Source: Minisyncoccota bacterium | Lineage (GTDB): Bacteria > Patescibacteriota > Minisyncoccia > Phycocordibacterales > XYD1-FULL-46-19 | Direction: 5' to 3' | NCBI GenBank assembly: GCA_041663165.1 | Contig: JBAZRF010000002.1 | Span: 37,043 to 101,042 of the forward strand | Length of the DNA: 64,000 bases | In this document: piece after piece, positions 6,082 to 64,000 of the stretch | Layout: each line of letters opens with the position of its first letter | Numbering within the stretch: position 1 is the first letter of the stretch | Program-made: the position numbers and the translations under genes | The notes under the pieces: model-generated | Seen by the model: the letters and a program-made list of their open reading frames with translations, nothing else | What the model was told of the DNA's origin: nothing | Database searches by the model: none

Positions 6082-6120
6082 ATCTTAATTCTCAACAGAG
6101 AGGATTCTATCACAAAAATC

Positions 6121-6597: not shown

Positions 6598-6636
6598 AAT
6601 TATACAACCAACAATATCTATAGTAAAATCATTTTT

Positions 6637-7062: not shown

Positions 7063-7104
7063 AAACGTTGATTTTGGTCATATTTTTGATAGTATGACAA
7101 GGCA

Positions 7105-7113
7105 GGGGGGGGG
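7105..7113 (+). repeat. G9 homopolymer tract, intergenic
   Basis: direct reading caaggcagggggggggattg. Confidence 0.9.
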
Positions 7114-7164
7114 ATTGTAATAGCCCTGTTTCTTTGAAAACTATATTTGTGGTATACTGGATGA

Positions 7165-7629: not shown

Positions 7630-7635
7630 ATACAC

Positions 7636-7726
7636 GGAGGGGTCGCATAGTTGGTCTAGTGCGGCGCACTTGAAATGCGCTATACCTGAAAGGGTATCGT
7701 GGGTTCGAATCCCACCCCCTCCGCCA
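7636..7726 (+). tRNA. tRNA-Ser (anticodon TGA), long variable arm, CCA encoded
   Basis: acceptor GGAGGGG/CCCCTCC, anticodon stem GCGCA/TGCGC with loop CTTGAAA, T-arm GTGGGTTCGAATCCCAC. Confidence 0.85.
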
Positions 7727-7771
7727 AGACCATTTAGTATCGGAGTAAGCCCGAGAGCCATAATTACAATT

Positions 7772-8476: not shown

Positions 8477-8590
8477 AACAGCTTGACCCGCACGCTCTGG
8501 TTTTAGGGTAAAAATATCTTTCAAAAACCATCGTGTCACTTGGGAGTGTGGGTGCCCCACTCATATGGCTCGACCTGAAGTCCTCCAGTT

Positions 8591-10123: not shown

Positions 10124-10136
10124 GGTGTTTATTTAT

Positions 10137-10165
10137 TTGACTTATAAACATGATTAGCCTATACT
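10137..10165 (+). promoter_or_regulatory. promoter TTGACT-17-TATACT for the TrmB-like regulator; TSS predicted at or next to the GTG start (leaderless)
   Basis: consensus hexamers and spacing read directly. Confidence 0.55.
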
Positions 10166-10172
10166 TTCTACA

Positions 10173-10952
10173 GTGAGTGGCCAACACCACCACTACGATA
10201 ATATGTACAAGGAAATTCTACAGGATATCGGTTTGTCGCCTAACGAGGCCAAGATTTATGAGGCCCTTTTAACTTTGGGGCTAGCAACGGTTCCGGCCAT
10301 TGCCGCCCAAACCGGTGTCCATAAACGCAATATCTATGACACCATCCCTCGTCTTTTAAAGAAGGGGCTGATTTATCAAGATGTTGGCACCCGGGAGAGT
10401 CGTTATTATGTGATTGAACCTAATAAATTAAATGATCTTATTTGGGAAAAGGACAGTAAATTGAAAAGTATTTTGCCGGCCATGTCGGCCCAATTTAAGA
10501 AAAATGCGACCAAAGAGGCTGTTTATATTTATCGCGGGGTTGAAGGCTTTAAAAATTATCTACGGGATATTCTAAAAGTTGGCGAAGACGTTTATTTTAT
10601 CGGGGCCAAGGGTGGCTGGTTTGATCAGGACCTCCAGCCCTTTATTCAGAAGTTTTTAAGGGAAGCCAAGAAAAAGGGGATTAAATATCATCATATTTTT
10701 GATGCTGAAGTGAAAAAACTAGCACCCGAAATCGTTGCCGAGCTGGGTAAACCTTACAAATTTTTACCGACGGGGTACTCTAGTACGGGGGCGATAGATA
10801 TTTTTGGCGACCATATTGTTACTTTTTCTGGTCTAAGTCTCAAAGATATTACTGAGGATGTAACGTTGGTTGTTATCATTAATCAAGAGCTAGCCGATTG
10901 CTACCGAACTTGGTTTCAATTTATTTGGGACCATTGTTCCCCTCAGCTTTAA
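10173..10952 (+). CDS. TrmB-family transcriptional regulator (sugar-sensing type), divergent from SSS transporter
   Basis: N-terminal HTH EAKIYEALLTLGLATVPAIAAQTGVHKRNIYDTIPRLLKKGLI typical of TrmB; alternative ATG start at 10203. Confidence 0.65.
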   Translation: MSGQHHHYDNMYKEILQDIGLSPNEAKIYEALLTLGLATVPAIAAQTGVHKRNIYDTIPRLLKKGLIYQDVGTRESRYYVIEPNKLNDLIWEKDSKLKSILPAMSAQFKKNATKEAVYIYRGVEGFKNYLRDILKVGEDVYFIGAKGGWFDQDLQPFIQKFLREAKKKGIKYHHIFDAEVKKLAPEIVAELGKPYKFLPTGYSSTGAIDIFGDHIVTFSGLSLKDITEDVTLVVIINQELADCYRTWFQFIWDHCSPQL

Positions 10953-11032
10953 AATGCTAATTTGATAATTAATCTGATATACTTGAAGAGGGAAGGGATC
11001 TTTAGGCCTAATTGCTAAACGGAGGACAGGAT

Positions 11033-11299
11033 ATGAAAAAAGAGAAGGGACCTTACCGGCTGAAGGTAAAGCTCGGGGTGTATGAGGAGGGGAGTCTTCA
11101 TACAAACAGAAACACGGTTTGGCTTGATCCTGTCCCAGAGGCGCGGGAAAAAGCATGGGACCGAGCCGCCCAGGAGCTCTCTCGTCTGTGGCTGGAGGCC
11201 GAATACGATCTCATCGCCGTCGTTCTTGAGGAACGAGTGGACGACGGGGGATGGGTCTCGGTCTGGCGTGGTCAAATGAAGAAGCTTCGGTCGCCCTGA
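11033..11299 (+). CDS. small hypothetical protein (88 aa), orphan cassette B
   Basis: SD GGAGGA 6 nt before ATG; GC content higher than flanks. Confidence 0.4.
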   Translation: MKKEKGPYRLKVKLGVYEEGSLHTNRNTVWLDPVPEAREKAWDRAAQELSRLWLEAEYDLIAVVLEERVDDGGWVSVWRGQMKKLRSP

Positions 11300-11349
11300 T
11301 CGGGGCTTTTCAATTTGCTTTTTAAGTTATTACTAATAGAATGTACGAA

Positions 11350-11748
11350 ATGCGTTATCTAGGAATCGATTATGGTAATCGTAAAGTCGGGCTCGCAATT
11401 TCGGATGAGGCGGGGAGTTTTGCTTTTCCTTATCAGGTGATTAAAAATGAGGGCGTCGACAAATTGGTGGGGCAGATTGAAAAAATTTGTGATAACGAGG
11501 GAATCGGGATAATTGTGTTGGGGGAGTCGCTTGATTTATCGGGCGAGGCCAATCCGATCCAAAAAGACATTTCGGTTTTTAAAGAAAAGTTGGAAAAAGA
11601 AGCGGGGAGAGAAGTCGTTTTGCAAAAAGAATTTTTTACCACACGAGAGGCTCGGCGAGTCATTGATGAAAACGGAACGGACTCTGAAACAGATGCGCGA
11701 GCGGCAGCGTTGATTTTGAAATCATATTTAGATCGGGGCCAGCATTAG
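11350..11748 (+). CDS. ruvX: Holliday junction resolvase-like protein / pre-16S rRNA nuclease YqgF
   Basis: MRYLGIDYGNRKVGLAISD N-terminus characteristic of RuvX/YqgF. Confidence 0.8.
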   Translation: MRYLGIDYGNRKVGLAISDEAGSFAFPYQVIKNEGVDKLVGQIEKICDNEGIGIIVLGESLDLSGEANPIQKDISVFKEKLEKEAGREVVLQKEFFTTREARRVIDENGTDSETDARAAALILKSYLDRGQH

Positions 11749-11849
11749 TATCTGAAAAGTCCTCGGTTCTCCTCAATCTGCGATTTCGGCCAGACATTTT
11801 CATCTACTAAAGCTGGCCCCTCTCGCCATCTTGGATTATAATTAAAGAG

Positions 11850-12950
11850 ATGAAGCAAGATCTCCTGCTTAAATTTTTCCCCGTACCAAAATATCTAACT
11901 CAGCCGGCGGTCGGCATGGATATCTCTGACCGGTCAATTAAATTTATGGAGCTTAAATATAAAGACGGGGAATTTTCCCTTGGTCGTTTTGGTGAGAGAG
12001 AAATCCCGGCTGGGGTGATTGAGGGGGGAGAGTTAAAGGAGATAAACCAGCTCGTCGCAATTCTTGGGGAATTAAAAAATAAATTTAATCTAGATAATGT
12101 TTTTATTTCTCTTCCCGATGATAAGGCCTATACCATTAATCTAGTCTTGCCGCCGATGAAGTTGTCGGAAATCCGAGGGAGTATCGAATTGCAACTTGAA
12201 GAGCATATACCCTTGCCGGTGGAAGACGTGGTTTTTGACTACGATTTAGTTCCCCCCTTAAAGGAAGGGGGAAAAATAGAAGTCGGAGTTTTCGTTCTCC
12301 CTAGAGAGATGGCCAAATCTTACCTCGAGGTCTTTTCTCGTGTCGGTCTAAATATTTTGGCAATTGAGACTCAAAGTGAGGCTTTAGCTCGGGCCCTTAT
12401 CTCTCCCGAAAATCTTTCAACTACGGCGATTGTCGATATTGGCCGCAGCCATACCGCTACCTTTTTGATTAAGAATGGAGTTGTAACGGCAGCGGCCGCT
12501 GTCCCCGTTGGTGGAGAGGCGATTACCACCAGCTTAGAAAGAAATCTTAAAATTGATTTTACTCAAGCAGAAAAACTAAAAACAGAAAAAGGGCTGTCTC
12601 GAGCAGCTGAAAACAAGGAGGCCTTTTTTGCGGCTATCCCCGTTGTCTCCGCGATTAAGGATGAAATCGAACGGAGAATTAATTTTTGGCTTGAGTATAA
12701 AGACGAAGGCGAATTGTCCTCCGCTCGGACCAAAGAGCTAAAACAAATTATTCTTTGTGGCGGACAATCAACCTTGCCTGGTTTTGCTGAGTATCTTGAA
12801 ATATACTTAAAAAGGCCGGTAGTTTTGGGCAATCCCTGGCTCAAAGTTTTTTCCTCGGGGCAAGTGGTTTTTCTTTTAAAATTTAATGAGGCTCTCCGTT
12901 ACTCAACTGCTATTGGTCTAGCTTTGCGAAATTTTACTAAATTAAATTAA
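11850..12950 (+). CDS. pilM: type IV pilus assembly ATPase-like protein PilM
   Basis: actin-like fold signature; followed by PilN/PilO-like genes in operon. Confidence 0.7.
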   Translation: MKQDLLLKFFPVPKYLTQPAVGMDISDRSIKFMELKYKDGEFSLGRFGEREIPAGVIEGGELKEINQLVAILGELKNKFNLDNVFISLPDDKAYTINLVLPPMKLSEIRGSIELQLEEHIPLPVEDVVFDYDLVPPLKEGGKIEVGVFVLPREMAKSYLEVFSRVGLNILAIETQSEALARALISPENLSTTAIVDIGRSHTATFLIKNGVVTAAAAVPVGGEAITTSLERNLKIDFTQAEKLKTEKGLSRAAENKEAFFAAIPVVSAIKDEIERRINFWLEYKDEGELSSARTKELKQIILCGGQSTLPGFAEYLEIYLKRPVVLGNPWLKVFSSGQVVFLLKFNEALRYSTAIGLALRNFTKLN

Positions 12951-12955
12951 TTACC

Positions 12956-13495
12956 GTGGCTAATCTTTTAACCAACGAAGCAAAACGTAACTTTCAAAAA
13001 GATTTTTTGAATCGTAAATTGGTAATTGTCGGTTTGGCCATCGGATTATTGTTAGTGGTTACAATAATTGTTCTGGGTTCTCTTCAGGTTAGCTTATTTA
13101 TTAGAACAAGCAAAATAACAAAAGTTCCTTCGGTAACGAGAAACGAAACGAAAAATGCGATGAGGTCGAGCGACTTAACATTATTAATAAAAAAGACAGA
13201 AGATCAGATAAAGATTGCCAATAGTTATTGGTCGGAGACTCCAGTCTCGGCCATGATGGCAGAAATTCTCAATCTTAAGCCCAAGGATATCAAGATTTCT
13301 GGATTTGCCGTTGAGCGGGTAGAAGTGGGCGAAAAAACAAAATTGTCTATCTCTGGCTCCGCCGGTGGCCGTGTTGGGCTAGTCAATTATGTTAATTTAT
13401 TGCGTCAGGATAAGTTTTTTTCTCGAGTTGATTTGCCGGTTGAGAGTTTAATTAGTGATCAGGGTGGACGATTTATTATTAATTTAGAAAAATGA
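12956..13495 (+). CDS. pilN: PilN-like inner membrane pilus assembly protein
   Basis: single N-terminal TM helix after short cytoplasmic segment; position after pilM. Confidence 0.55.
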   Translation: MANLLTNEAKRNFQKDFLNRKLVIVGLAIGLLLVVTIIVLGSLQVSLFIRTSKITKVPSVTRNETKNAMRSSDLTLLIKKTEDQIKIANSYWSETPVSAMMAEILNLKPKDIKISGFAVERVEVGEKTKLSISGSAGGRVGLVNYVNLLRQDKFFSRVDLPVESLISDQGGRFIINLEK

Positions 13496-13998
13496 TCAGT
13501 CATTCACGAAAAGTTTTTTATTTAATTTTAGGAGTAGATATTCTCTTACTCATTTCTATCGGTTTTTTAGTCTGGCAAATTAAAGAGCGAGAGGTCGAAT
13601 CGGTCAACGCCTTGGCCCAGGCTTCTCTCCCTGAACCCTCCGAAGAAGATTCGGCCGTTGATTCTTGGTCAAAACTTGAGCCACAAATTGCTACCCTCGA
13701 TAGTTATTTTCTCTCGGCCAGCACCACGGTTGAATTTCTTGAGCGGCTTGAGAGTGTTGCAAAATTGACGAAAATTAACCTCAAAATTAATCAGGCAGAA
13801 GCCAAGGATAATCTTCGTTTAAATTTTTCAACCGAGGGCAGTTTTTCGGCGATAAATCAGTTTTCGGTGCTTCTTGAGAAGTTTCCTTATATCCTTCGGC
13901 TCGAACGACTAGATTTGCGAGCGGGAGAGAAAGGCTCTTGGAAGGGAGATTTTGTCATTAGGGTAATTACACAGAATGATTCAATCAGTTCGCCATAA
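13492..13998 (+). CDS. pilO: PilO-like pilus assembly protein
   Basis: N-terminal TM helix, coiled-coil region; 4-nt overlap with pilN. Confidence 0.5.
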   Translation: MISHSRKVFYLILGVDILLLISIGFLVWQIKEREVESVNALAQASLPEPSEEDSAVDSWSKLEPQIATLDSYFLSASTTVEFLERLESVAKLTKINLKINQAEAKDNLRLNFSTEGSFSAINQFSVLLEKFPYILRLERLDLRAGEKGSWKGDFVIRVITQNDSISSP

Positions 13999-14302
13999 AA
14001 AATTAGTTATGAAAAGTTTGTTTGAAAAATTAAAAAACATGACTCGCGGCGTAACTTTTTTTTGGCGGACGCTAATTATAATATTTTTTGTGAGTCTAAT
14101 CATTGTCTCTATTGGCTGTGCCATTTTTTGGATTAATGTCGAGCAGGGTTTAGACTCCCCGGTTATTGAAGGTGGGGTAAAAAAGAGTAAGACTTTTAGC
14201 GCTGACAGTCTTAATCAAGTCTTAGAAAAAATAAAGGCTCGATCGATCGAATCAGCGAGCACCACTGACGGCTCAACTAATCTCATTGATCCGTCTCTCT
14301 AA
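13976..14302 (+). CDS. small membrane protein, last gene of the pilMNO cluster
   Basis: TM helix TLIIIFFVSLIIVSIGCAIFWI; overlaps the pilO 3' end. Confidence 0.4.
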   Translation: MIQSVRHKKLVMKSLFEKLKNMTRGVTFFWRTLIIIFFVSLIIVSIGCAIFWINVEQGLDSPVIEGGVKKSKTFSADSLNQVLEKIKARSIESASTTDGSTNLIDPSL

Positions 14303-14368
14303 TTTTGGCTTGCACGGCGCTTGCCGGTCGTAGCCTTGGCGAAGATCGGAAGCTTTAGCGAAGTAGTG

Positions 14369-14440
14369 TGCCCTCAGTAGGAATCGAACCTACATCAGCG
14401 GCTTAGAAGTCCGCAGTTTTATCCATTAAACTATGAGGGC
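14369..14440 (-). tRNA. tRNA-Arg (anticodon TCT), CCA not encoded
   Basis: acceptor GCCCTCA/TGAGGGC, anticodon stem GCGGA with loop CTTCTAA, T-arm GTAGGTTCGATTCCTAC. Confidence 0.8.
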
Positions 14441-14745
14441 TTTTTTGTTTTCCCGAAACATTTATATTGTGCGTACGTCTTTTTCCTGTGACAATTTGCG
14501 CATCTTATTTCACATTTGCTGATTTCTGCTAATACTGATTCCCAAGAATAGTGACCAGATAACATTTTGGCAACAGTTTTAAACTTACTCTTTGGATTGG
14601 TGTGGTCAAACTCTAAGACGATTGGATCATTTTCTCCACAATCAACACAAGACTTAGAAGAGAGAAATCCTAATAATTCTTCGCGCACCTTTATGCGATG
14701 TTTCTTTTGTGCTTTATATAAATCCTCTCTATGTTTATAAGGCAT
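14431..14745 (-). CDS. small HNH endonuclease; 3' end overlaps the tRNA-Arg(TCT) 5' end by 10 nt
   Basis: CVDCGENDPIVLEFDHTNPKSK...CANCHRKKT HNH/zinc-finger motif. Confidence 0.65.
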   Translation of the reverse strand: MPYKHREDLYKAQKKHRIKVREELLGFLSSKSCVDCGENDPIVLEFDHTNPKSKFKTVAKMLSGHYSWESVLAEISKCEIRCANCHRKKTYAQYKCFGKTKKPS

Positions 14746-14807
14746 AAAGGGATTATATCACAAAGTTCTAACCTTTTCCGTAAAACTCTATTTATCTTTG
14801 TGGATAG

Positions 14808-14880
14808 TGGGCGCTAAGGGACTCGAACCCCTGACCTTCTCCGTGTAAAGGAGTTGCTCTACCAACTGAGCTAAGCGCCC
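14808..14880 (-). tRNA. tRNA-Val (anticodon TAC)
   Basis: acceptor GGGCGCT/AGCGCCC, anticodon loop TTTACAC, T-arm AGGGGTTCGAGTCCCTT. Confidence 0.8.
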
Positions 14881-14921
14881 TTGCCGTCCTTAATTTATAC
14901 TATAAAATAGGGCTTGAATCA

Positions 14922-15743
14922 ATGAAGGCTGATATTCCAATCATTTTTGAAGACGCCAACATTTTGGTAATCAATAAGCCGGCCGGGCTTACGGTGCATG
15001 GAGATGGATTTGGTAAGCAGGAAACGCTAGTGGATTGGCTGATGAAAAAATATCCGGAGATTGAGGGAGTGGGTGAGGAGATGGAGCCGTCGACCCCACT
15101 TCGCCATGGCTTCGTGGGGCAAAGGATCAAAAAGCCGGGGATTATCCATCGGCTAGATAAAGAGACGAGCGGGGTGATGATTGTTGCCAAAACGCAGGAA
15201 GCTTTTTTGTTTTTCAAAAAACAATTTCAAAATCACGAGGTTAAAAAGATTTATCGAGCGATTTTATCGGGCCACGTCAATTTCCCGGTCGGGGAGGAAA
15301 AGGTTTTAAATTGGCCGATTGGCCGGAGCTCTAATGATCCGCGAATCAGAGTTGCCCGAAGCGGAGGCAAGGGCAAATTACGCGAGGCGGTCACCATTTT
15401 TCGCCTGTTAGAAAATATTTGTTCAAATTACGCCTTGGTGGAGGCCGAGCCCAAGAGCGGGCGGACCCACCAGCTCCGAGCTCATTTTAAAGCCTATAAT
15501 CATCCAATTATTGGTGATAGTTTGTATAATCCAAATAACAATGGCGAGGGGGCGATTGAGCGAACGGCGCTTCACGCTTTTAGCTTGACTGTTAAATTGC
15601 CCTGCTTCGTTGCCAACTCCGCCGAGGCTTCGTTGGCCAAGAAAACTACGCAGGGTGAAGCTAAGGGAGAAGAAATGACTTTTGTTGCTCCCTTAGCTTC
15701 AGATTTCGAGGCTGCGCTTGAAAAACTTAAAGCTTCGTGTTAA
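14922..15743 (+). CDS. RluA-family pseudouridine synthase (RluD/RluC-like)
   Basis: catalytic motif HRLDKETSGVMIVAK. Confidence 0.75.
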   Translation: MKADIPIIFEDANILVINKPAGLTVHGDGFGKQETLVDWLMKKYPEIEGVGEEMEPSTPLRHGFVGQRIKKPGIIHRLDKETSGVMIVAKTQEAFLFFKKQFQNHEVKKIYRAILSGHVNFPVGEEKVLNWPIGRSSNDPRIRVARSGGKGKLREAVTIFRLLENICSNYALVEAEPKSGRTHQLRAHFKAYNHPIIGDSLYNPNNNGEGAIERTALHAFSLTVKLPCFVANSAEASLAKKTTQGEAKGEEMTFVAPLASDFEAALEKLKASC

Positions 15744-15756
15744 ACTGCCTCGCGTT

Positions 15757-16233
15757 ATGGTGAAAGTTTCAGAATTCAAAATTTCTCCTGTTGATATGGC
15801 TAAACGCCAAAAGTTGGGCATCAAGGCCGGCTTTACCGTGCGGGTTTGGCAGAAGGTGCCTGAAAAGGATGGCAAGTTTCGTCTGCAGGCCTACGAGGGC
15901 TTGGTGATTGCTTGCAAGCATGGCGAGGATGCCGGCGCGACCTTTACTGTTCGCCGAGTGGCTTCGGGTGTTGGCATGGAGAAAATTTTTCCTCTTTACT
16001 CGCCAATGATTGATAAGATTGAAATTTTGCGCGAAGTTAAAGTTCGCCGTTCAAAATTATATTATATTCGCGACAAAGCCGCTCGTGAGATTCGCCGTCG
16101 GATGCGCAAGATTGTGGCCGGCAAGCGCGAGCCGGATGAGCTGGTTGAACAGGTCACGGCTGGTATCGAGATCGAGCCAGTTATCGAAGAGGTTCCCGAG
16201 GAAGTAGTGGCTGTAGCGGAGACTAAAGAATAA
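15757..16233 (+). CDS. rplS: 50S ribosomal protein L19 with acidic C-terminal extension
   Basis: GFTVRVWQKV...FEGLVIA...FTVRRVASGVGMEKIFPLYSPMIDKIEI matches the L19 core. Confidence 0.85.
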   Translation: MVKVSEFKISPVDMAKRQKLGIKAGFTVRVWQKVPEKDGKFRLQAYEGLVIACKHGEDAGATFTVRRVASGVGMEKIFPLYSPMIDKIEILREVKVRRSKLYYIRDKAAREIRRRMRKIVAGKREPDELVEQVTAGIEIEPVIEEVPEEVVAVAETKE

Positions 16234-16250
16234 AAAACAAATTCAAAAAG

Positions 16251-16277
16251 AAAAAACCAGGTCAGCCTGGTTTTTTC
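16251..16277 (+). terminator. rho-independent terminator after rplS (AAAAACCAGG-TCAG-CCTGGTTTTTT)
   Basis: stem plus T-run. Confidence 0.8.
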
Positions 16278-16283
16278 TTTTTG

Positions 16284-16367
16284 TGCGCGGGAGAGGACTC
16301 GAACCTCCACACCATTGCTGGCTCTACCACCTCAAGGTAGCGCGTCTACCAATTTCGCCACCCGCGC
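16284..16367 (-). tRNA. tRNA-Leu (anticodon GAG), long variable arm
   Basis: acceptor GCGCGGG/CCCGCGC, anticodon stem CTACC/GGTAG with loop TTGAGGT. Confidence 0.8.
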
Positions 16368-16414
16368 AGATAGCTAGATAATAAGCCCAAAATGCTCATT
16401 TGGCAACATTTTGC

Positions 16415-16442
16415 TTGACTTTATGGTTTTTTGTATTACAAT
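16415..16442 (+). promoter_or_regulatory. near-consensus promoter TTGACT-16-TACAAT for orphan ORF C
   Basis: hexamers read from sequence; SD GGAGG 6 nt before ATG at 16477. Confidence 0.6.
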
Positions 16443-16476
16443 CACAGTGGGTTTTGTAACGTCGTGGAGGTCTGAG

Positions 16477-16848
16477 ATGAAAAGGTCTAATGGAGTGAAT
16501 GGCGGGTCTTGCAGTCCGAGCGGGTCTGACAAGAATGCCACCTACGAGGTGAGTTTTTGGTGCGGTGGTCATCGCACCAAAGATTCCACTATTACCGTTG
16601 TGGTGAGTCTGGATGAAATCAGGCGCTATGCTCTGGAGTGTATTAGGGGCCTGATTGATTCCAGAAGTCAGGATCTCGTTGGGGCTGTTAGGTTCCAGTC
16701 CGGACACGTCTCTCTTGCCATACCATTTACCGCAGAGGATACTAAGTCCTTTGTCATTGAAAAGGCAAGAGCGCATAAGGACTTTCCGCAAGAAGCGCGG
16801 GATTTGGGTTCTGACGTTGAAATCCGCGTCGCCAAACTTCTTGTGTGA
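16477..16848 (+). CDS. small hypothetical protein (123 aa), orphan cassette C
   Basis: own promoter, SD and terminator; no recognisable family. Confidence 0.5.
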   Translation: MKRSNGVNGGSCSPSGSDKNATYEVSFWCGGHRTKDSTITVVVSLDEIRRYALECIRGLIDSRSQDLVGAVRFQSGHVSLAIPFTAEDTKSFVIEKARAHKDFPQEARDLGSDVEIRVAKLLV

Positions 16849-16863
16849 AAACATCCCTTGCCC

Positions 16864-16900
16864 GCGCGCCCTTACCCAAAGGGCGCGCTTCCATTTTTCT
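16864..16900 (+). terminator. terminator GCGCGCCC-TTACCCAAA-GGGCGCGC followed by T-rich tract
   Basis: perfect 8-bp GC stem. Confidence 0.75.
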
Positions 16901-16923
16901 CATTTTTATGTTACAAATTAAAC

Positions 16924-17475
16924 ATGCTTTATACGGGCAAAGGCGATAAGGGGCAAACCAAGCTCTATCATTGTGATCAAAAGCTTTCAAAGAGCTCATT
17001 GATCGCTGAGGCTTTGGGAGCGCTCGACGAGATCAATTCGCTTTTGGGTTGGTGTAAAACAAAAATTGAATCCAGCTACATTGTTGTGGCTAAACAAAAT
17101 TTGCCAACGATTTTAGAAGAAACTCAAAACAGCCTTTTTTCTGTCCAGGCCGAGTTGGCTGGTGCGCCCAAAAAACTTTCCAAAACGGCGATTACCAAAA
17201 TTGAGGCCCTAATTAAAGTAATTGATAAAGAATTACCACCAATCAAAAGCTTCATCATCCCCGGGGGAACTGAGCTGTCAGCCATGCTCGATGTGGCGCG
17301 CACGGTGGCGCGGGGGGCGGAGAGACAAGTCGTGGCGGTTGCCGAAATTGGTGATATTAAGTTACAATCAACTACGCTCGCTTACCTAAATCGTCTTTCT
17401 AGTTTATTATATGCTTTAGCCCGTTTGGTAAACCATCGGGCGGGGATAGTGGAAAGAAAGCCCGAGTACAAATAG
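16924..17475 (+). CDS. PduO-type ATP:cob(I)alamin adenosyltransferase family protein
   Basis: MLYTGKGDKGQT N-terminus typical of PduO-type ATR (PF01923). Confidence 0.7.
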   Translation: MLYTGKGDKGQTKLYHCDQKLSKSSLIAEALGALDEINSLLGWCKTKIESSYIVVAKQNLPTILEETQNSLFSVQAELAGAPKKLSKTAITKIEALIKVIDKELPPIKSFIIPGGTELSAMLDVARTVARGAERQVVAVAEIGDIKLQSTTLAYLNRLSSLLYALARLVNHRAGIVERKPEYK

Positions 17476-17492
17476 TCAGGGCAGAACAACAT

Positions 17493-17565
17493 GGTGCCTA
17501 TAGTGTAATGGTTAGCACTAGAGTTTGTGGAACTCTCAGTTCGGGTTCGAATCCCGATAGGCACC
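17493..17565 (+). tRNA. tRNA-His (anticodon GTG) with encoded G-1
   Basis: G-1 pairs with discriminator C73; anticodon stem AGAGT/ACTCT with loop TTGTGGA; T-arm TCGGGTTCGAATCCCGA. Confidence 0.8.
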
Positions 17566-30286: not shown

Positions 30287-31492
30287 ATGAAAGATAAACA
30301 AATCGCCAAATTAATTAAGGCTGAGGAAAAGAGGCAAAAGGGCACTATCAACCTTACCGCTTCGGAGAATTATGTGTCGAGAGATGTTCTTGGGGCACTA
30401 GGTTCAATCTTGGTTAATAAATATGCCGAGGGCTATTCAGCGGCCCGTTATTATTATGGCACAAAAATTATTGATCAGATTGAAAGTTTGTGTAAAGAGC
30501 GAGCGCTAAAGCTTTTTAAACTTAGGCCCTCGGAGTGGGCGGTCAATGTGCAGCCGCTCTCTGGCTCACCGGCGAATGTGGCGGTGTATTTGGCGCTCGT
30601 GCCACCGGGCGGAAAAATTATGGGTATGGCCCTCGATCAGGGTGGGCACTTAACGCATGGACACAAAGTTTCGATTACCGGTAAATTTTGGATACCGGCA
30701 CCCTATTACGTTGATAAAAAAACTGAGCAGCTTGATTATGATGAGATAAAAAGGATTGCTCTGAAAGAGCAGCCAAATATTATTGTGGCCGGCTTTACGG
30801 CTTATCCGCGCAAAATTGATTGGCAAAAATTTCGCGAGATTGCGGACGCGGTGGTATACCCTGACGGCAGGCAAGGTGCCTATTTGATGGTCGACATGTC
30901 ACATATTGCTGGTCTGGTGGCTGGTGGAGTGCACCTATCGCCGTTCCCGTATGCTGATATCGTGACGACGACAACTCACAAAACCTTGCGTGGGCCGCGC
31001 GCCGGTTTGATTTTCTCGCGCATTGATAGTCGGGAGTTAAGTAAAAAGATCGATAGGGCGGTTTTTCCGGGTCTTCAGGGCGGGCCACATGCTAATCAGA
31101 TCGCTTCGGTCTCCGTAGCCTTAGCCGAGGCTAGCCGGCCAGAATTTAAAAAATATGCCAAACAAATCATTGCTAATAATAAAACTTTGGCCGCTGAATT
31201 AAAAAAACGTGGCTGGCGTCTTGTCTCGGGCGGAACGGATAATCATTTATTGCTGGTGGATGTCGCCGGCTCAACTGACGGTAAAATGACTGGTAAGATA
31301 GCCGGCGAGAGATTAGAAAAAGAGGGGATCATTGTTAATAAAAATACCATTCCATTTGACACACGAACACCTGCCGATCCGTCAGGCATAAGACTGGGCA
31401 CCGCGGCCGAAACGACGCGGGGTAAAAAAGAAAAAGACATGATTAAAATTGCTGAACGAATCGATAAAATTTTGCGAAAAAATAGGGGATGA
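30287..31492 (+). CDS. glyA: serine hydroxymethyltransferase
   Basis: PLP lysine motif TTTTHKTLRGPRAG. Confidence 0.9.
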   Translation: MKDKQIAKLIKAEEKRQKGTINLTASENYVSRDVLGALGSILVNKYAEGYSAARYYYGTKIIDQIESLCKERALKLFKLRPSEWAVNVQPLSGSPANVAVYLALVPPGGKIMGMALDQGGHLTHGHKVSITGKFWIPAPYYVDKKTEQLDYDEIKRIALKEQPNIIVAGFTAYPRKIDWQKFREIADAVVYPDGRQGAYLMVDMSHIAGLVAGGVHLSPFPYADIVTTTTHKTLRGPRAGLIFSRIDSRELSKKIDRAVFPGLQGGPHANQIASVSVALAEASRPEFKKYAKQIIANNKTLAAELKKRGWRLVSGGTDNHLLLVDVAGSTDGKMTGKIAGERLEKEGIIVNKNTIPFDTRTPADPSGIRLGTAAETTRGKKEKDMIKIAERIDKILRKNRG

Positions 31493-33493: not shown

Positions 33494-35251
33494 ATGGCTA
33501 ATGACTGGCTAATTAAAGAAATAACTAATGCGGTTAAAGCTCTCGGCTTGGAATTAGGAGGGGACAAGATCAGGCTCGAACACCCATCCGACTTATCTTT
33601 GGGTGATTTTTCAACCAACGTGGCAATGTTGGCCGCCTCCCAAAATAGGACTAAGCCACAAGAGTTGTCTGAACAAATCAAAAACAAAATTCTAGAGGCC
33701 AAAAACCCTAACCTGCGAGATGCCCGGGTCGCTGGCCCAGGCTTCATTAATTTTTATTTGGCAGATGAATTTTTTGCCAATTCGCTCAAAGAAATTTTAG
33801 CGAACGCTGGCACTTTTGGCCAAATCAAAATTCTCGCGGGCCAAAAGATAATGGTGGAATATACCGACACTAATCCGTTTAAAGAATTTCATATTGGCCA
33901 TTTAATGAGTAATACGGTAGGTGAGGCACTGGCCAGGCTTTTGGCTGGCAATGGCGCTGATGTTAAGCGTGCTTGTTATCAGGGCGATGTCGGGATGAAT
34001 GTGGCCAAGGCTTTATGGGGGATGTTTAAGCTCGAAAAAGAATTGCCCAAAGAAGAAGATTCTTTGGTTGCCAAGATAAAATTTTTAGGCCGAGCTTACG
34101 CGCTAGGGGCGACCGAATATGAAGAGGGGAGTGATAATGCTAAGGAGGGAATAGTAATTATCAATAAAAAGATTTATAAGAGGAGCGATCCAAAACTTAA
34201 CGAACTTTACGATCTCGGTCGGCGCTGGAGTTTGGAGCAATTCGAAACAATTTACGAGCGCTTGGGCACCAAATTCGACTTCAATTTTTTTGAAAGTGAG
34301 ATTTGGCCAATTGGCCAAAAAATGGTTGAGGACGGATTAGCTAAAGGAATTTTTGAGAAAAGTGATGGTGCCATTGTCTTTCGCGGTGAACAGCATAATC
34401 CCAAATTGCATACCCGCGTCTTTATTAATTCTGAAGGGCTGCCAACTTATGAGGCCAAAGATTTGGGTCTAGCCAAAATTAAAAACGAGAAATATCCTTT
34501 TGATCTGTCTGTCTCGATTACTGGCCATGAGCAGGACGGTTATTTTCAGGTTGTGATCGAGGCCATGAAGCAAGTTTTGCCGGACATTGAATCAAAGATT
34601 AAACATCTCTCTCACGGTTTACTCAAATTGCCGACGGGCAAAATGTCTAGCCGGGCCGGCAACATCATAACGGCCGAATCACTGATTGACGATGTTAGGG
34701 GAAAAGTTTTGGCGAAAATTAAAGATCGCGAGTTTGGCGCTGGTGAAAAAAACGAAATAGCCGAGGGTGTTGCCATTGGGGCAATTAAGTATTCGATTTT
34801 GAAACAGTCGATCGGCAAAGATATTGTTTTTGATTTTGATAAATCACTATCGTTTGAGGGCGACTCGGGGCCCTATCTCCAATATGCTTACACGCGAGCG
34901 CTATCGGTTCTCAAAAAAGCCGAGGCAGTTTCGAAGTCGGACTTCGATGAGCCTGAAGTCCAACTTCAGAAATTGCCAGCCGAAACTTCGAAAGAAGCCT
35001 CAATTTCTGGTCTCGAAAAAATATTGTATCAACTTCCTGAAATTACCGAACGGGCTTATAACGAACTGGCGCCACAATATCTTGTTTCTTACCTGATCGA
35101 AGTCGCTGGCGCCTTTAACTCTTTTTACGCCCAAAACCAAATTATCGGCAGTGACGATGAAGCCTATCTTCTCGCTCTCACTCGTGCCACCTCAATCGTC
35201 CTCAAAAACGGCCTAAATCTACTTGGCATTCCAGTGCTAGAGAAAATGTAA
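33494..35251 (+). CDS. argS: arginine--tRNA ligase
   Basis: KMSSRAGN (KMSKS-equivalent), anticodon-binding C-terminus. Confidence 0.9.
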   Translation: MANDWLIKEITNAVKALGLELGGDKIRLEHPSDLSLGDFSTNVAMLAASQNRTKPQELSEQIKNKILEAKNPNLRDARVAGPGFINFYLADEFFANSLKEILANAGTFGQIKILAGQKIMVEYTDTNPFKEFHIGHLMSNTVGEALARLLAGNGADVKRACYQGDVGMNVAKALWGMFKLEKELPKEEDSLVAKIKFLGRAYALGATEYEEGSDNAKEGIVIINKKIYKRSDPKLNELYDLGRRWSLEQFETIYERLGTKFDFNFFESEIWPIGQKMVEDGLAKGIFEKSDGAIVFRGEQHNPKLHTRVFINSEGLPTYEAKDLGLAKIKNEKYPFDLSVSITGHEQDGYFQVVIEAMKQVLPDIESKIKHLSHGLLKLPTGKMSSRAGNIITAESLIDDVRGKVLAKIKDREFGAGEKNEIAEGVAIGAIKYSILKQSIGKDIVFDFDKSLSFEGDSGPYLQYAYTRALSVLKKAEAVSKSDFDEPEVQLQKLPAETSKEASISGLEKILYQLPEITERAYNELAPQYLVSYLIEVAGAFNSFYAQNQIIGSDDEAYLLALTRATSIVLKNGLNLLGIPVLEKM

Positions 35252-35292: not shown

Positions 35293-38200
35293 ATGGCTGA
35301 AGAAACCTCGGAGGTAAAAAAATCAGAGATTGCGCAAAAAGAGGAGAAGATCCTCAAATTTTGGCAGGATAATAAAATTTTTGAAAAAACCCTAACCAAG
35401 GAGGCGCCCAAGGGTGAATTCGTTTTTTATGACGGTCCGCCGTTTGCCACCGGCACGCCCCATTATGGTCATATTTTGGCGAGCGCCATTAAGGATGCTA
35501 TTCCGCGCTATAAAACAATGAGTGGCTATCACGTGCCTCGACGTTGGGGCTGGGATTGTCACGGCCTGCCAATTGAGAACATTGCCGAAAAAGATCTAAA
35601 AATTTCGGGTAAAAAGCAAATTGAAGAAATTGGCGTCAAGGAGTTTAACGAGCACGCCAGGAGCAAGGTCCTCGAGTACATTGGCGAATGGCAAAAAACC
35701 GTCGATCGCATGGGTCGCTGGGTTGATTTTGAGGGATCATACAAAACGATGGATAACTCCTATATGGAGTCGGTGTGGTGGGCGATTAAACAATTTAATG
35801 ACCAGGGTCTTTTGTATGAGGGCACGCGGGTTTTGCCCTATTGTCCGCGCTGCGAAACGCCCATCGCCAATTCCGAAATCGCGATGGACAATAGTTATAA
35901 AGATATTAAAGATATCTCGGTTACGGTTGAGTTTGAACTAGCTGACGAACCGGGGACTTTTGTTTTGGCGTGGACCACAACACCTTGGACTTTGCCGGGC
36001 AATGTCGCCCTAGCGATTAATCCAGGTATTCTTTATGTCGAAGTAGAAGGGGAAGTATCGGGTAATAAATATATTTTAGCCAAATCTCGAGTTGAGACGG
36101 TCTTTAAAAATAATTTTAAAATTCTCAGAGAATTTGTTGGCCAAGATTTAATTGGCAAAAAATATAAAGCGCTTTTTAATTATTATGTTGACGATAAAAA
36201 ATTAGAGAACCGAGAAAAGGGCTGGCAAATTTATAGTGCCGATTTTGTGACGACCGAAGATGGCACGGGGGTAGTTCATATCGCGCCGGCTTTTGGTGAG
36301 GACGATATGGCCTTGGCCAAGAAGGAGAAATTGCCAATTATTTGGCATGTTGACGGCACCGGACGATTTAAACCGGAGGTTAAAGATTTTGCTGGCGACT
36401 TGGTCAAGCCCAAAGATGATCTGGCTGGTTCACCAGCTGGCCACTTAATCACTGATATTAAGGTGGTCAAATATCTGGAGGATCATAGTTTGCTTTTCGA
36501 CCAAGCTAAAATCACGCACTCCTACCCCCACTGTTTTCGGTGCGAGACCCCACTTTATTATTATGCTATCCCGGCTTGGTTTGTGGACATCCAAAAAGTT
36601 AAAGCCGATATCTTAAATCTCAACGAGCAAAAGATAACTTGGATTCCCGAGCATTTAAAACGCGGCCGCTTTCATAATAGCGTCGAGAGCGCTCCGGATT
36701 GGAATATCTCGCGCAATCGTTATTGGGCGACGCCTTTGCCAATTTGGAAGTGCCAGCAATGTCCAGAAATAAAAATCATTGGTTCGCTCGAAAATCTAGC
36801 TGATAATCAAAAAAAATCTGACAATAAGTATTGGGCGATGCGCCATGGTGAAGCTGAGAGTAATGTAAAGAATTTAATTAGTGCTGATCCGATTCTCGAA
36901 GATAAGCTAACCGCTAAAGGTAAGGATGAAGTCAAAGAATCAGCCCAAAAATTGAAGGGAGAAAAAATCAATCTGATCATCTCTTCGGATTTTGTGCGAA
37001 CAAAAGAAACGGCTAAAATTGTTGCTGGTGAGTTGGGGCTCAAGTCGGAGCAAGTTATTTTTGACGAGCGTCTGCGCGAGATAAATCCCGGTGATTTTGC
37101 CGGTCAGACCTGGAAAGAATACAACACGGCTTTTGGTTCGCGCGCCAATCGTATAAATGGGCATTTGTCGACTGGCGGAGAAAATTATAATGATATTCGT
37201 CGGCGAGTGATGGCAGCGATTTATGAGTTTGATCAAAAGTATCAGGATCAAAAGATTTTGATTATTAGCCATGGTTTGCCCCTATTTATGTTCCAAGCGA
37301 CAACCCAATTTTTAACGGATGAAGGTGTCGCTAAGGCGCCACGACGAGGAACAGATTTTACTACTGGCGAGGCGCGATCAATTAACTTTTTCCCTGTGCC
37401 GCATAACGATAATTTTGAATTAGATTTACATCGTCCCTATATCGACGAAGTTAAGTTGATTTGTACCTGTGGTGGCGAAATGAAGCGGATTATCGAAGTG
37501 GTAGATTGCTGGCTCGAGTCAGGCTCAATGCCTTTTGCCGCTAACAACTATCCCTTTAGGGAACAAAAGGTTTTTGACCCAATCAAAAAAGTCGGTTTCC
37601 CGGCCCAATTTATTGCCGAGTATATCGCCCAAACCAGAACTTGGTTTTATTATATGCTGACGGTTTCAGCCATTCTCTTTAAGGAGACATCATTTGAAAA
37701 TGTCGTTACCACGGGCACGGTTCTGGCCGAGAATGGGCAAAAAATGTCCAAACACTTAAATAATTTTCCTGATCCTTGGCTAATGTTTGATAAATATGGC
37801 GTTGATGCTTTGCGTCTATATCTATTGTCCTCACCCCTGATGAAAGCCGAAGATCTTAATTTCTCTGAAAAGGGTGTCGTCGATATCGGTCGGAGAGTCG
37901 TGTCCCGGCTCTTAAATGTCTTATCTTTTTACAAAATGTATGTAGATGGGGGTGTTCTCGAAGAGAGACCTCGGGCTCATTTGGGGACTCGCCTCGACAA
38001 CACGGCAAATATTTTAGATAAATGGATTTTGGCTCGACTCAGTACTACGATTAGTCAGGTAACGGAGTCTCTTGATCATTACGAAATTGACCGTTCGGTT
38101 TGGCCGGTTGATGACTTCATTGATGACCTCTCGACTTGGTACTTGCGCCGGTCGCGCGACCGTTTTAAGGAGGGGGGAAAAGATCGCGACGAAGCCATCG

Positions 38201-38847
38201 CCACAATTCATTTTGTCTTAATGGCGACAGCCAAATTATTAGCGCCAGTTGCTCCATTTGTGGCCGAGATGGTTTATCAAGAATTAAAGACTGAAGTCGA
38301 TTCGGAAAGTGTTCATCTTGCCTCTTGGCCGAATTTTTCTTTCCCCGAAGCCGAGACCCTGTTGGCTGATATGCAAAAAGTTCGAGAGATCGTATCGCTA
38401 GGCCTAGAATTTCGCCAGGCCACTAAAATTAAGGTACGTCAGCCGCTGGCGGAGCTTTTAATCCGGGACAATTATTTGGAAAATAAAGAGGAGTATCTCG
38501 GTTTAATTAAAGATGAGCTTAATGTTAAGGCGGTTAATTTCAAATCGGAGATTGAGGATGATGTTTGGTTAGATACTGAAATTACGAGTGATTTGCAGGC
38601 CGAGGGGGCGGTGCGGGAACTTATTCGCCAGGTTCAAGAGATGCGAAAAGCTGAGGGCTTGGCGCCAGGCGAAAAAATTAATTTGGTCATTGAAGCTGAT
38701 AATAATAGTCGGGAGCTGCTGCGTCGATTCGAGGCGGAATTTAAATTAGGAACAACGACGCAAAAAGTTGATTATGCCGTTGTTGGCGAGAGCGATACAA
38801 TTTGGGCAGGCGAGCGGCCGTTCAAAATAAAAATCATTAAACTCTAA
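35293..38847 (+). CDS. ileS: isoleucine--tRNA ligase, type 2, carrying an internal histidine-phosphatase domain insertion
   Basis: HIGH motif PHYGH, KMSKS motif KMSKH, WNISRNRYWATPLPIW; 1184 aa. Confidence 0.9.
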   Translation: MAEETSEVKKSEIAQKEEKILKFWQDNKIFEKTLTKEAPKGEFVFYDGPPFATGTPHYGHILASAIKDAIPRYKTMSGYHVPRRWGWDCHGLPIENIAEKDLKISGKKQIEEIGVKEFNEHARSKVLEYIGEWQKTVDRMGRWVDFEGSYKTMDNSYMESVWWAIKQFNDQGLLYEGTRVLPYCPRCETPIANSEIAMDNSYKDIKDISVTVEFELADEPGTFVLAWTTTPWTLPGNVALAINPGILYVEVEGEVSGNKYILAKSRVETVFKNNFKILREFVGQDLIGKKYKALFNYYVDDKKLENREKGWQIYSADFVTTEDGTGVVHIAPAFGEDDMALAKKEKLPIIWHVDGTGRFKPEVKDFAGDLVKPKDDLAGSPAGHLITDIKVVKYLEDHSLLFDQAKITHSYPHCFRCETPLYYYAIPAWFVDIQKVKADILNLNEQKITWIPEHLKRGRFHNSVESAPDWNISRNRYWATPLPIWKCQQCPEIKIIGSLENLADNQKKSDNKYWAMRHGEAESNVKNLISADPILEDKLTAKGKDEVKESAQKLKGEKINLIISSDFVRTKETAKIVAGELGLKSEQVIFDERLREINPGDFAGQTWKEYNTAFGSRANRINGHLSTGGENYNDIRRRVMAAIYEFDQKYQDQKILIISHGLPLFMFQATTQFLTDEGVAKAPRRGTDFTTGEARSINFFPVPHNDNFELDLHRPYIDEVKLICTCGGEMKRIIEVVDCWLESGSMPFAANNYPFREQKVFDPIKKVGFPAQFIAEYIAQTRTWFYYMLTVSAILFKETSFENVVTTGTVLAENGQKMSKHLNNFPDPWLMFDKYGVDALRLYLLSSPLMKAEDLNFSEKGVVDIGRRVVSRLLNVLSFYKMYVDGGVLEERPRAHLGTRLDNTANILDKWILARLSTTISQVTESLDHYEIDRSVWPVDDFIDDLSTWYLRRSRDRFKEGGKDRDEAIATIHFVLMATAKLLAPVAPFVAEMVYQELKTEVDSESVHLASWPNFSFPEAETLLADMQKVREIVSLGLEFRQATKIKVRQPLAELLIRDNYLENKEEYLGLIKDELNVKAVNFKSEIEDDVWLDTEITSDLQAEGAVRELIRQVQEMRKAEGLAPGEKINLVIEADNNSRELLRRFEAEFKLGTTTQKVDYAVVGESDTIWAGERPFKIKIIKL
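36814..37392 (+). other. inserted histidine phosphatase (phosphoglycerate-mutase-like) domain within ileS, between the IGSLENL segment and DLHRPYID
   Basis: RHGEAESN catalytic motif plus second His in LIISHGLPL. Canonical type-2 IleRS has only ~30 aa at this position. Confidence 0.65.
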
Positions 38848-38851
38848 GCCT

Positions 38852-39439
38852 ATGGCTTATCGCCATTACGATACCGAAGGTTTAATCATTAGCCACCGCA
38901 ATTTAGGCGAGGCAAATCGTCTGTATCAGATCTTAACTCTCGATTTTGGCTTAATCAACGTTCTTGCTCAGGGCGTGCGTCATGATCGATCAAAGTTGCG
39001 CCACCATCTCGAAAATTTCTCTTTCGCTCGTTTGATTTTGGTGCGCGGTCGAGAGTTTTGGCGCGTTGTGGGGGCCAATGATCTTAATTTGCCGGGCAAG
39101 CCTTCGAGGGAGATCCTGTCTTTTTTAAAAAAGATTTCTCTTGTTTTGCAACGTTTGATCCATGGAGAAGAGACAAATTCTCCTATTTATCAAGACTTAA
39201 AACAGGCTTCCTTGCTGCTTGGGGACGGTGACTCACAAGCTAAAGATTGTCTTGTCGACCTAGAGATCTTTATTATGGTTCGTATTTTGATAAAGCTTGG
39301 ATACTTAGTCCCCCTGCCCGAATTAAAAAATATTTTTTCACCGCCAACCTTCTCGTGGCTCGAGGTCGGCAAAGTTAAGGATTTCAAATCTCTGCTAATA
39401 AAACAAATCAATCAGGCCTTAGAAGTTACCCAGCTATAA
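38852..39439 (+). CDS. recO: DNA repair protein RecO (short form)
   Basis: N-terminal OB-fold pattern EGLIISHRNLGEANRLYQILTLDFG. Confidence 0.55.
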   Translation: MAYRHYDTEGLIISHRNLGEANRLYQILTLDFGLINVLAQGVRHDRSKLRHHLENFSFARLILVRGREFWRVVGANDLNLPGKPSREILSFLKKISLVLQRLIHGEETNSPIYQDLKQASLLLGDGDSQAKDCLVDLEIFIMVRILIKLGYLVPLPELKNIFSPPTFSWLEVGKVKDFKSLLIKQINQALEVTQL

Positions 39440-63117: not shown

Positions 63118-63289
63118 ATAGAAAATTCCAATCTTTGACAACTGAATTCCAGTACGACAATTATATTCCAATTGTTGGGGTCTTTGAATTGTCGGAGCTG
63201 GGTAGGTAGAAAGCTGTATGTTCAAACACGAAAGTGTAAGAGCAAATAGAGAAATAATTAAGAAAATGGTTTTTAAGTTTCCTGTTAGG

Positions 63290-64000
<711 letters not shown>

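Follow-up and report, generated by a model that had tools for sequence, protein, structure and literature searches.

A histidine phosphatase domain nested in the CP3 loop of type-2 isoleucyl-tRNA synthetases of Patescibacteria

The stretch of DNA analyzed here, hereafter called the window, comprises 64,000 nucleotides of a Minisyncoccota bacterium (assembly GCA_041663165.1, contig JBAZRF010000002.1). Its ileS gene encodes a type-2 isoleucyl-tRNA synthetase (IleRS) that carries a complete histidine phosphatase domain in a loop of CP3, one of the connective-peptide (CP) subdomains. The original prediction for this locus had placed a histidine phosphatase inside IleRS at 36814-37392, and this was borne out, as these positions are codons 508-700 of a single uninterrupted open reading frame (ORF) with a highly significant match to the His_Phos_1 family. 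We regard it as virtually certain that a real, conserved His_Phos_1 domain is nested in this protein. The insert had been put at about 190 residues; it exists but is slightly wider, spanning about amino acids 503-709. The features are listed below with residue numbers of the window protein, and all conservation counts refer to an alignment of 120 fusion proteins that are 48-77% identical to it.

35293..38847, + strand: ileS, type-2 isoleucyl-tRNA synthetase with nested phosphatase, 1184 amino acids, single uninterrupted ORF
35461..35472, + strand: HIGH signature H57-Y-G-H60, H57 and H60 invariant in the 120 homologues
35974..35991, + strand: threonine-rich motif TTTPWT of the CP1 editing domain, amino acids 228-233, T228-T230, W232 and T233 invariant (alignment A2)
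36751..36762, + strand: first Cys pair of the CP3 zinc knuckle, C487-Q-Q-C490
36799..37419, + strand: inserted module, amino acids ~503-709, consisting of an N-terminal linker, a complete histidine phosphatase and a C-terminal linker, in place of a loop of 8-17 amino acids
36832..37290, + strand: His_Phos_1 (PF00300) match, amino acids 514-666, E=1.5e-29, 103.5 bits against a cutoff of 21.7
36841..36849, + strand: RHG motif with R517, the nucleophile H518 and G519; R and H in 120/120, G in 117/120
36862..36864, + strand: N524 of the phosphate pocket, conserved in 118/120
36997..36999, + strand: R569, second phosphate-binding arginine, conserved in 120/120
37078..37080, + strand: E596, predicted general acid, 119 Glu and 1 Asp in 120, aligned with the Glu of RLrEi in PhoE
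37270..37272, + strand: H660 of the SHG motif, second catalytic histidine, conserved in 120/120
37399..37407, + strand: motif P703-H704-N705 of the C-terminal linker; P in 118/120, H in 110/120, N in 113/120
37462..37470, + strand: second Cys pair of the CP3 zinc knuckle, C724-T-C726
37741..37755, + strand: KMSKS-type loop K817-M-S-K-H821, K817 and K820 invariant

The ORF scores well above the cutoff of the IleRS equivalog TIGR00392 of NCBIfam (851.6 bits against 621.4), and in a Pfam search its tRNA-synt_1 match is split in two by His_Phos_1. The HIGH and KMSKS motifs of the synthetase are intact, as had been claimed (HYGH at 57-60 and KMSKH at 817-821). The editing motif GTG.VH near amino acids 324-329 is also kept across the IleRS family, and the core Cys of the connective peptide is conserved in the synthetase body. 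The closest entry in the PDB is IleRS2 of Priestia megaterium (8C8U, E=3.8e-208), and the yeast enzyme reaches 1.4e-202 (7D5C), whereas type-1 enzymes match far more weakly (Staphylococcus aureus 1FFY, 7.1e-81; IleRS1 8C9E, 6.6e-82). Because the matches to IleRS2 and eukaryotic enzymes far exceed those to type-1 enzymes, the window IleRS can be assigned to the type-2, eukaryote-like group. Its body can be aligned end to end with type-2 structures (8C8U and the yeast and Candida enzymes 7D5C and 6LDK, E=3.8e-208 to 1e-202), but where these have 17 residues or a small CP3 element, the window protein has a module of 207 amino acids. It belongs neither to the mupirocin-resistance synthetases MupA and MupB (NF000257 and NF000258, 664 and 724.5 bits against a cutoff of 1900) nor to the IleRS family with a GNAT domain (NF040702, ileS_w_GNAT, 281.6 bits against 1999). 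An AlphaFold2 model of the full-length protein has a mean predicted local distance difference test score (pLDDT) of 90.1 and a predicted template modeling score (pTM) of 0.84, with pLDDT values of 90-93 in the linker blocks.

When the protein is aligned with 8C8U, residue 493 of the query corresponds to residue 465 and residue 707 to residue 483, so that 17 residues there stand against 213 here. In the IleRS of sister lineages that have no insert (loci L083, L086 and L090), about 8 residues separate GS..EL from DLH(R/K). The insert is thus delimited against both kinds of relatives, whose spacing is 8-17 amino acids and not the roughly 30 residues that were originally taken as normal, and the short loop of the insert-less enzymes excludes that the phosphatase segment is an ordinary CP element of IleRS. 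In a profile of 197 positions, the free-standing relatives of the domain span from position ~4-6 to ~192-195. They cover nearly the whole profile, and therefore a whole protein has been inserted.

As judged from the flanking sequence, the module is inserted in the zinc-knuckle loop of CP3, a peripheral subdomain, and not in the catalytic core proper, where the original prediction had put it. The name CP3 is that used in a structural study of Candida IleRS, which also describes that the topology of CP3 varies among IleRS lineages and that CP3 of Thermus thermophilus IleRS bears a zinc-binding motif (PMC7191050). In our alignment, Cys 487, 490, 724 and 726 co-occur in 100 of the 120 homologues and are jointly absent from the remaining 20. 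Because the four are lost together, some lineages would do without a zinc ion at the insert's base. The linkers are specific to the fusion: N511 of the N-terminal linker is present in 120/120 insert-bearing IleRS proteins and is conserved only in these, and the PHN motif is likewise restricted to them and missing from insert-less IleRS. The GC content of the insert (0.39-0.45) shows no discontinuity with the remainder of the gene.

Taken alone, the insert matches PF00300 with 108.4 bits (cutoff 21.7). The phosphatase motifs that had been recognized are all present, that is, RHG at 517-519, N524 and SHG with H660. Four further residues of the insert, G543, S565, E630 and R638, are invariant too. 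Mean pairwise identity among the fusion proteins is 40% for the insert versus 59% for the rest of the protein. Because the catalytic set is kept while the insert diverges faster than the synthetase, the pattern of substitution indicates purifying selection on catalysis within an otherwise fast-evolving domain, as expected for an enzyme. The nested phosphatase is probably catalytically active. An AlphaFold2 model of the domain alone is of high quality (pLDDT 93.5, pTM 0.91), and the insert has the alpha/beta fold of the cofactor-dependent phosphoglycerate mutase (dPGM)/PhoE type. An ORF of 110 amino acids runs antisense within the phosphatase-coding region (36940-37272, - strand); because it lies opposite conserved coding sequence, we treat it as a mechanical ORF.

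A profile built from 23 inserts found PhoE/YhfR of Geobacillus stearothermophilus as its top match among solved structures (1EBB/1H2E, 2.6e-24), followed by the phosphoserine phosphatase of Hydrogenobacter thermophilus (4IJ5) and CobC (6NRU, 6E4B). The nearest solved enzymes are small-molecule phosphatases, namely, PhoE, PspA, GpgP, the histidine family phosphatase (HFP) of the riboflavin pathway and CobC. The insert also has the helical cap that is typical of small-molecule enzymes and is nearer to PhoE and PspA than to protein phosphatases with an open site. PhoE/YhfR, which is 24-26% identical to the insert, is a free-standing enzyme of broad specificity; unlike PhoE, the insert is nested in a synthetase and has dedicated linkers (N511 and PHN). 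The other relatives, PspA/iPSP1 (4IJ5), CobC (6NRU, 6E4B) and mycobacterial GpgP (6S2Q), provide no basis for the transfer of a substrate. Several named families were compared with the insert, and it stays below the cutoff of each. The models for dPGM give 27.2 bits against 81.7 (TIGR01258), 70.6-75.4 against 225 (NF038349) and 42-47 against 316 (PRK01295). Moreover, the classical dPGM models align over the N-terminal ~100 amino acids only, and the domain has ~195 amino acids versus ~230-250. For the alpha-ribazole phosphatase CobC (TIGR03162) the scores are 79.6-81.4 bits against 162.9 and for PspA-type phosphoserine phosphatase (NF045917) 55.2-59.9 against 350. The NCBIfam threshold for GpmB is not reached, nor is that for SixA (TIGR00249), a cap-less protein of ~155 amino acids with which 136 residues align; the insert has a cap. 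There is no homology to inorganic pyrophosphatases of family I, family II or the membrane type, the domain being His_Phos_1. By these comparisons, the insert belongs with the short, PhoE-like histidine phosphatases of branch 1 and is not a phosphoglycerate mutase.

The fusion is not a peculiarity of this genome. In all 120 best homologues of the full-length protein, PF00300 accompanies the IleRS domains. These sequences derive from assemblies of NCBI, JGI, ENA and Logan, with contigs as long as 719 kb, and are labelled as Paceibacterota, Nomurabacteria, Zambryskibacteria, Taylorbacteria and similar groups. When one genome per GTDB species was scanned for a pattern of the module, at least 540 loci proved to encode a relative of it. 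The best 80 of these are IleRS with the CP3 insert in 80/80 cases and include Lloydbacteria, Campbellbacteria, Vogelbacteria, Kaiserbacteria, "Minisyncoccia" and the 693-kb contig RAAC4_OD1_1. Searched exhaustively with a profile, 1.84 billion cluster representatives yielded 407 matches at E<=1e-30. A word-index search with the insert only returned free-standing proteins of ~190 amino acids and missed even the window protein, which is a limit of the tool and not an absence; the fusions were recovered with the full-length query and by the exhaustive profile search. The databases label most of the fusions "class I tRNA ligase family protein," and a number of them carry the name isoleucyl-tRNA synthetase. 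The fusion is thus clade-wide and has been present unremarked in public sequence databases for years. We found no description of an IleRS-phosphatase fusion in the literature searched (full text), in line with what had been supposed. The survey also bears on the possibility of an assembly or annotation artifact, in which a chimeric contig or a frame error would have joined two genes. We consider the chance of this negligible, as the ORF is uninterrupted, the E values are strong, and the same arrangement is found in 120/120 homologues from several assembly sources and at 80/80 GTDB loci.

The neighborhood of the gene is conserved as well. In the window, ileS with its insert lies in a block with the following two genes.

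33494..35251, + strand: argS, arginyl-tRNA synthetase (ArgRS), directly upstream of ileS, with Pfam domains Arg_tRNA_synt_N, tRNA-synt_1d and DALR_1
38852..39439, + strand: recO-like gene at the downstream end of the argS-ileS-recO block, with Pfam domain RecO_N

The order in the window is argS, ileS with the insert, recO, and then genes for a DUF11 protein, a class II aminoacyl-tRNA synthetase, a peptidase M16 and an AI-2E transporter. At the 80 GTDB loci, argS directly precedes ileS in 45 of the 64 that have enough sequence, and recO is downstream of it in 53 of the 66 with enough downstream sequence. In sister lineages the same block reads argS, phosphatase, insert-less ileS (931-981 amino acids), a small ORF and recO, followed by genes for a large surface protein, a class II aminoacyl-tRNA synthetase and a peptidase M16. 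Here the phosphatase is a separate gene that overlaps ileS by 10 nucleotides or is separated from it by a gap of 1-7 nucleotides. Such a free gene between argS and ileS is found at loci L083-L091 and L098 (for example, at 7001-7582 of L086). The closest free-standing relatives (P0008, P0011, P0159 and P0181) have 189-195 amino acids and are 33-41% identical to the insert. Insert-bearing loci among the best 80 have one phosphatase match each, the insert itself. Because of this single match, and because loci with the free gene have an insert-less ileS, the inserted and the separate phosphatase are alternatives.

The module has also entered other places and other proteins. Three further insertion sites in IleRS (A2, B and C) were found by direct reading of the flanking motifs, which replaced a pairwise mapping with MAFFT that proved noisy. 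At site A2 the module replaces the second Cys pair, before MKRIPEVLDCWFESG; at site B it lies between ...SGSMPYA..HYPF and FPADFIAEG.DQTRGWFY, and at site C it is found at the junction with the anticodon-binding domain. The modules at these three sites all have the full catalytic set, and some IleRS proteins carry tandem copies in CP3. The IleRS family with modules at both B and C (P0164) is found on contigs of up to 1.06 Mb, in a lineage with purA, DAHP synthase and SufBD. Valyl-tRNA synthetase (ValRS) of Gracilibacteria, Peregrinibacteria and relatives has the module in 70 of 119 matches (P0293-P0411). Most of these modules lie in the homologous CP3 loop, between WWGH(R/Q)IPVWY and DTLDTWFSS, as one to three tandem copies, and in some ValRS proteins a CP2-like site is occupied. 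Of the 70 proteins, 45 retain at least one intact copy. Paceibacterial ValRS proteins in the same list have no module, and an insert-less ValRS and an insert-bearing IleRS probably share one contig of 439,541 bp, as suggested by the equal contig size only. At L081 (6001-8070) an ArgRS of 689 amino acids has a C-terminal His_Phos_1 domain; recO follows directly downstream, and ileS is missing from its usual slot between the two. At L082 (977-2140), on a single contig of 3.7 kb, a Sua5/YrdC (threonylcarbamoyl-AMP synthase) domain is joined to the phosphatase, which replaces the usual SUA5 C-terminal domain. At L093 and L094 (366-3851, P0137) an N-terminal part of ValRS with four phosphatase copies ends at a stop codon, and a new ORF begins after 10 nucleotides. 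Either ValRS is split here or there is a frameshift or, as the contig has ~2x coverage, an error. Each of these three cases (ArgRS, Sua5 and the four-copy ValRS) is backed by one or two contigs. Fusion hosts that were checked in the set of the 150 best representatives proved to be IleRS (fragments included), ValRS, ArgRS or Sua5; a small number of fragmentary or extended proteins were left unclassified.

Distance trees give some indication of the history of the module. A neighbor-joining tree of 175 domain copies, which is distance based and effectively unrooted, has a star-like shape; the free-standing copies fall mostly into one clade, with the ArgRS-fused copy inside it, and the copies at variant sites group apart. 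In a rough neighbor-joining tree of the IleRS cores, insert-less IleRS proteins fall at two places among the insert-bearing ones. This hints at more than one transition between insert-bearing and insert-less IleRS, and we make no claim as to the direction.

What could a phosphatase do in a tRNA synthetase? The original prediction had named a nucleotide, a 2',3'-cyclic or 3'-phosphate RNA end or a regulatory alarmone as possible substrates; the comparative context favors a functional tie to aminoacyl-tRNA synthetases as a group and does not single out any of these. IleRS, ValRS, ArgRS and Sua5 all convert ATP into AMP and pyrophosphate (PPi). The protein would be bifunctional, with an equipped type-2 IleRS and a whole branch-1 phosphatase of the PhoE/PspA/CobC kind in its CP3 loop. 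The phosphatase would work through a phospho-histidine cycle in which H518 is the nucleophile, R517, R569, N524 and H660 form the phosphate pocket and E596 acts as the general acid. We propose that it hydrolyzes the terminal phosphate of a small, diffusible molecule that is made or bound at the adenylate-forming site. A small-molecule substrate is suggested by the closest structural relatives, which are small-molecule phosphatases. That it would be diffusible is suggested because the insertion points vary, tandem copies occur and a separate, co-translated protein is viable, and for the same reasons proximity or stoichiometry would matter rather than a precise channel. The most likely substrate may be PPi, an attractive candidate because activation is pulled forward when a product is removed; alternatively, it may be a nucleotide by-product. 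A tethered or co-translated phosphatase would then pull amino acid activation forward in cells with a minimal metabolism. Given the conservation, the synteny and the recurrent fusion, we think it rather probable that the function of the phosphatase is coupled to synthetase activity. For the favored explanation as a whole, an active phosphatase that is functionally tied to the synthetase and clears a by-product of activation, our confidence is evenly poised, and the specific identification of PPi as the substrate is tentative and on the unlikely side. A wider generalization, that in each lineage of Patescibacteria, or candidate phyla radiation (CPR), one class Ia synthetase has recruited a dedicated phosphatase as an integral accessory activity of aminoacylation, is possible but doubtful; it would be IleRS in Paceibacteria, ValRS in Gracilibacteria and Peregrinibacteria and a co-translated neighboring gene in some sister lineages. 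A tblastn search with Escherichia coli Ppa gave 0 matches in the window and 94 loci (1.05 Mb), where only about 1 to 2 would be expected, so that this result carries no information for or against a canonical pyrophosphatase.

Several observations weigh against this proposal. We know of no branch-1 histidine phosphatase that acts as an inorganic pyrophosphatase. The fusions to ArgRS and to Sua5 have each been observed once. Of the 70 ValRS proteins, 25 have no copy in which the RHNREH set is complete, some having lost Glu and/or the second His; these proteins may be pseudo-enzymes, and the losses, although in part they may be alignment errors, hint that the module could serve for binding or structure in these bacteria. 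One more distant free-standing relative lies between unannotated genes, and another (P0247, at 583-2164 of L097) overlaps the end of a gene for a ROK-family sugar kinase. In CPR the ValRS proteins P0316, P0351 and P0325 carry other inserted domains, PF04480 (DUF559, endonuclease-like) and PF00216 (HU-type DNA-binding), which points to CP loops as hot spots for insertions in general in the synthetases of CPR, so that structural permissiveness contributes. Furthermore, at least one Parcubacterium has been drawn with an H+-PPase (PMC5220378). As a separate observation, the neighbors of P0247 include genes for GlmS and a HAD hydrolase; this setting relates to sugar phosphates and not to ileS.

Alternatively, the phosphatase could be a housekeeping enzyme for a metabolite (phosphoserine, a sugar phosphate or a broad range of substrates) that hitch-hikes, with no mechanistic link to aminoacylation. 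In streamlined CPR genomes, merging into the permissive CP loop of an essential and constitutively expressed synthetase would guarantee its expression and retention. This is the strongest rival explanation, improbable in our view but to be taken seriously. It fits with the metabolite phosphatases among the nearest solved enzymes (PhoE, PspA, GpgP, the riboflavin-pathway HFP and CobC), with the free-standing relative that is coupled to the ROK kinase near the HAD hydrolase and GlmS, with the structural variability of CP3 among IleRS proteins (PMC7191050) and with the other inserts hosted by CPR ValRS, and the variability of the insertion sites implies that the geometry need not be precise. However, random parking should reach many kinds of hosts, whereas those checked are only IleRS, ValRS, ArgRS and Sua5. 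The module has landed repeatedly in class Ia synthetases, at four sites in IleRS and two in ValRS, and besides the fusions to ArgRS and Sua5, the phosphatase gene elsewhere adjoins ileS. A role that depends on no catalysis at all, as a structural spacer, an oligomerization surface or a phosphate-binding site, could explain why some ValRS copies lack Glu and/or the second His and yet keep the RH..R pocket, and the conserved, confidently modeled linkers (N511 and PHN) would suit rigid docking. Nevertheless, six catalytic positions are kept in 118-120 of the 120 IleRS proteins despite 60% divergence elsewhere in the domain, and A2, B and C all hold intact copies, so that we think a non-catalytic module very unlikely.

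It is also conceivable that the substrate is RNA and that the domain clears a 3'-phosphate, an opened 2',3'-cyclic phosphate or another phosphate from damaged tRNA, which could then be recharged. All four hosts handle tRNA or an intermediate of tRNA modification, CP3 and sites A2 and B are loops of the catalytic domain, and there is similarity, below the cutoff, to the phosphatase half of the RNase H/acid phosphatase PRK07238. Still, we know of no branch-1 histidine phosphatase that acts on RNA ends, and the helical cap is that of small-molecule enzymes. Some copies are far from the acceptor end (site C and the C terminus of ArgRS), and there are up to three to four copies in tandem; because of these distant sites and tandem copies, a substrate that depends on geometry is hard to reconcile with the data, and we hold an RNA phosphatase to be quite unlikely. 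Less likely still is a regulatory role of the kind known from the protein phosphatases SixA, PGAM5 and Sts, in which the domain would remove phosphate from His, Ser, Thr or Tyr of the synthetase or a partner, for example, to reverse an inhibitory phosphorylation by a toxin kinase. The insert falls short of the SixA threshold with only 136 residues aligned, has a cap that SixA lacks and shows no kinase in its conserved neighborhood, so that this is a highly improbable alternative to the phosphatase of an activation by-product that we prefer.

If true, a by-product phosphatase would mean a synthetase-bound phosphohydrolase for PPi or a nucleotide that replaces or supplements the canonical pyrophosphatase; this activity, or that of a tRNA-end phosphatase, would be a new functional class of accessory domain of aminoacyl-tRNA synthetases. 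These enzymes have been studied intensively, and their accessory domains have revealed editing, signaling and resistance functions. Here an apparently active second enzyme within an essential synthetase is conserved over hundreds of species of the least understood bacterial radiation. The comparative evidence for a functional partnership is thus unusually strong, and apparently nobody has examined this partnership. It offers a handle that can be cloned to study the energetics or quality control of tRNA charging in ultra-small cells with a minimal metabolism. Natural insertions of domains in the CP3 loop could guide the engineering of synthetases, and the annotation of these fusions, most of which now carry only the generic label of a class I tRNA ligase, can be improved.

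Known systems resemble the fusion in part. The only catalogued precedent that we found for an extra enzyme domain in IleRS is ileS_w_GNAT (NF040702), in which the accessory domain is a different one, an N-acetyltransferase. His_Phos_1 is combined with an RNA enzyme in the mycobacterial RNase H/acid phosphatase of the Rv2228c type (PRK07238, to which the insert scores 70-73 bits against 326) and with a nucleotide enzyme in MutT1, which consists of a Nudix and a histidine phosphatase domain (3FJY, 9CXX). The phosphatase half of MutT1 removes the terminal phosphate of a nucleoside diphosphate. Both are end-to-end fusions with other partners, whereas the domain in the window is nested in a synthetase loop. 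Lineage-dependent CP insertions are known from other class Ia synthetases, such as the leucine-specific domain of leucyl-tRNA synthetase. The variable CP3 of IleRS is likewise found in a connective-peptide loop of the Rossmann fold (PMC7191050), but the known CP3 elements are small (~60 amino acids) and non-enzymatic, and the insert of the window is a complete second enzyme.

Some other features of the window were seen. The 5' part of a 23S rRNA gene lies at 63283-64000, where it is cut off by the end of the window; the 63 kb upstream of it contain no 16S rRNA gene, so that the rRNA genes appear to be unlinked here. Upstream of the argS-ileS block there is a serine hydroxymethyltransferase gene at 30287-31492, and seven tRNA genes are spread on both strands over ~12 kb (5733-17565).

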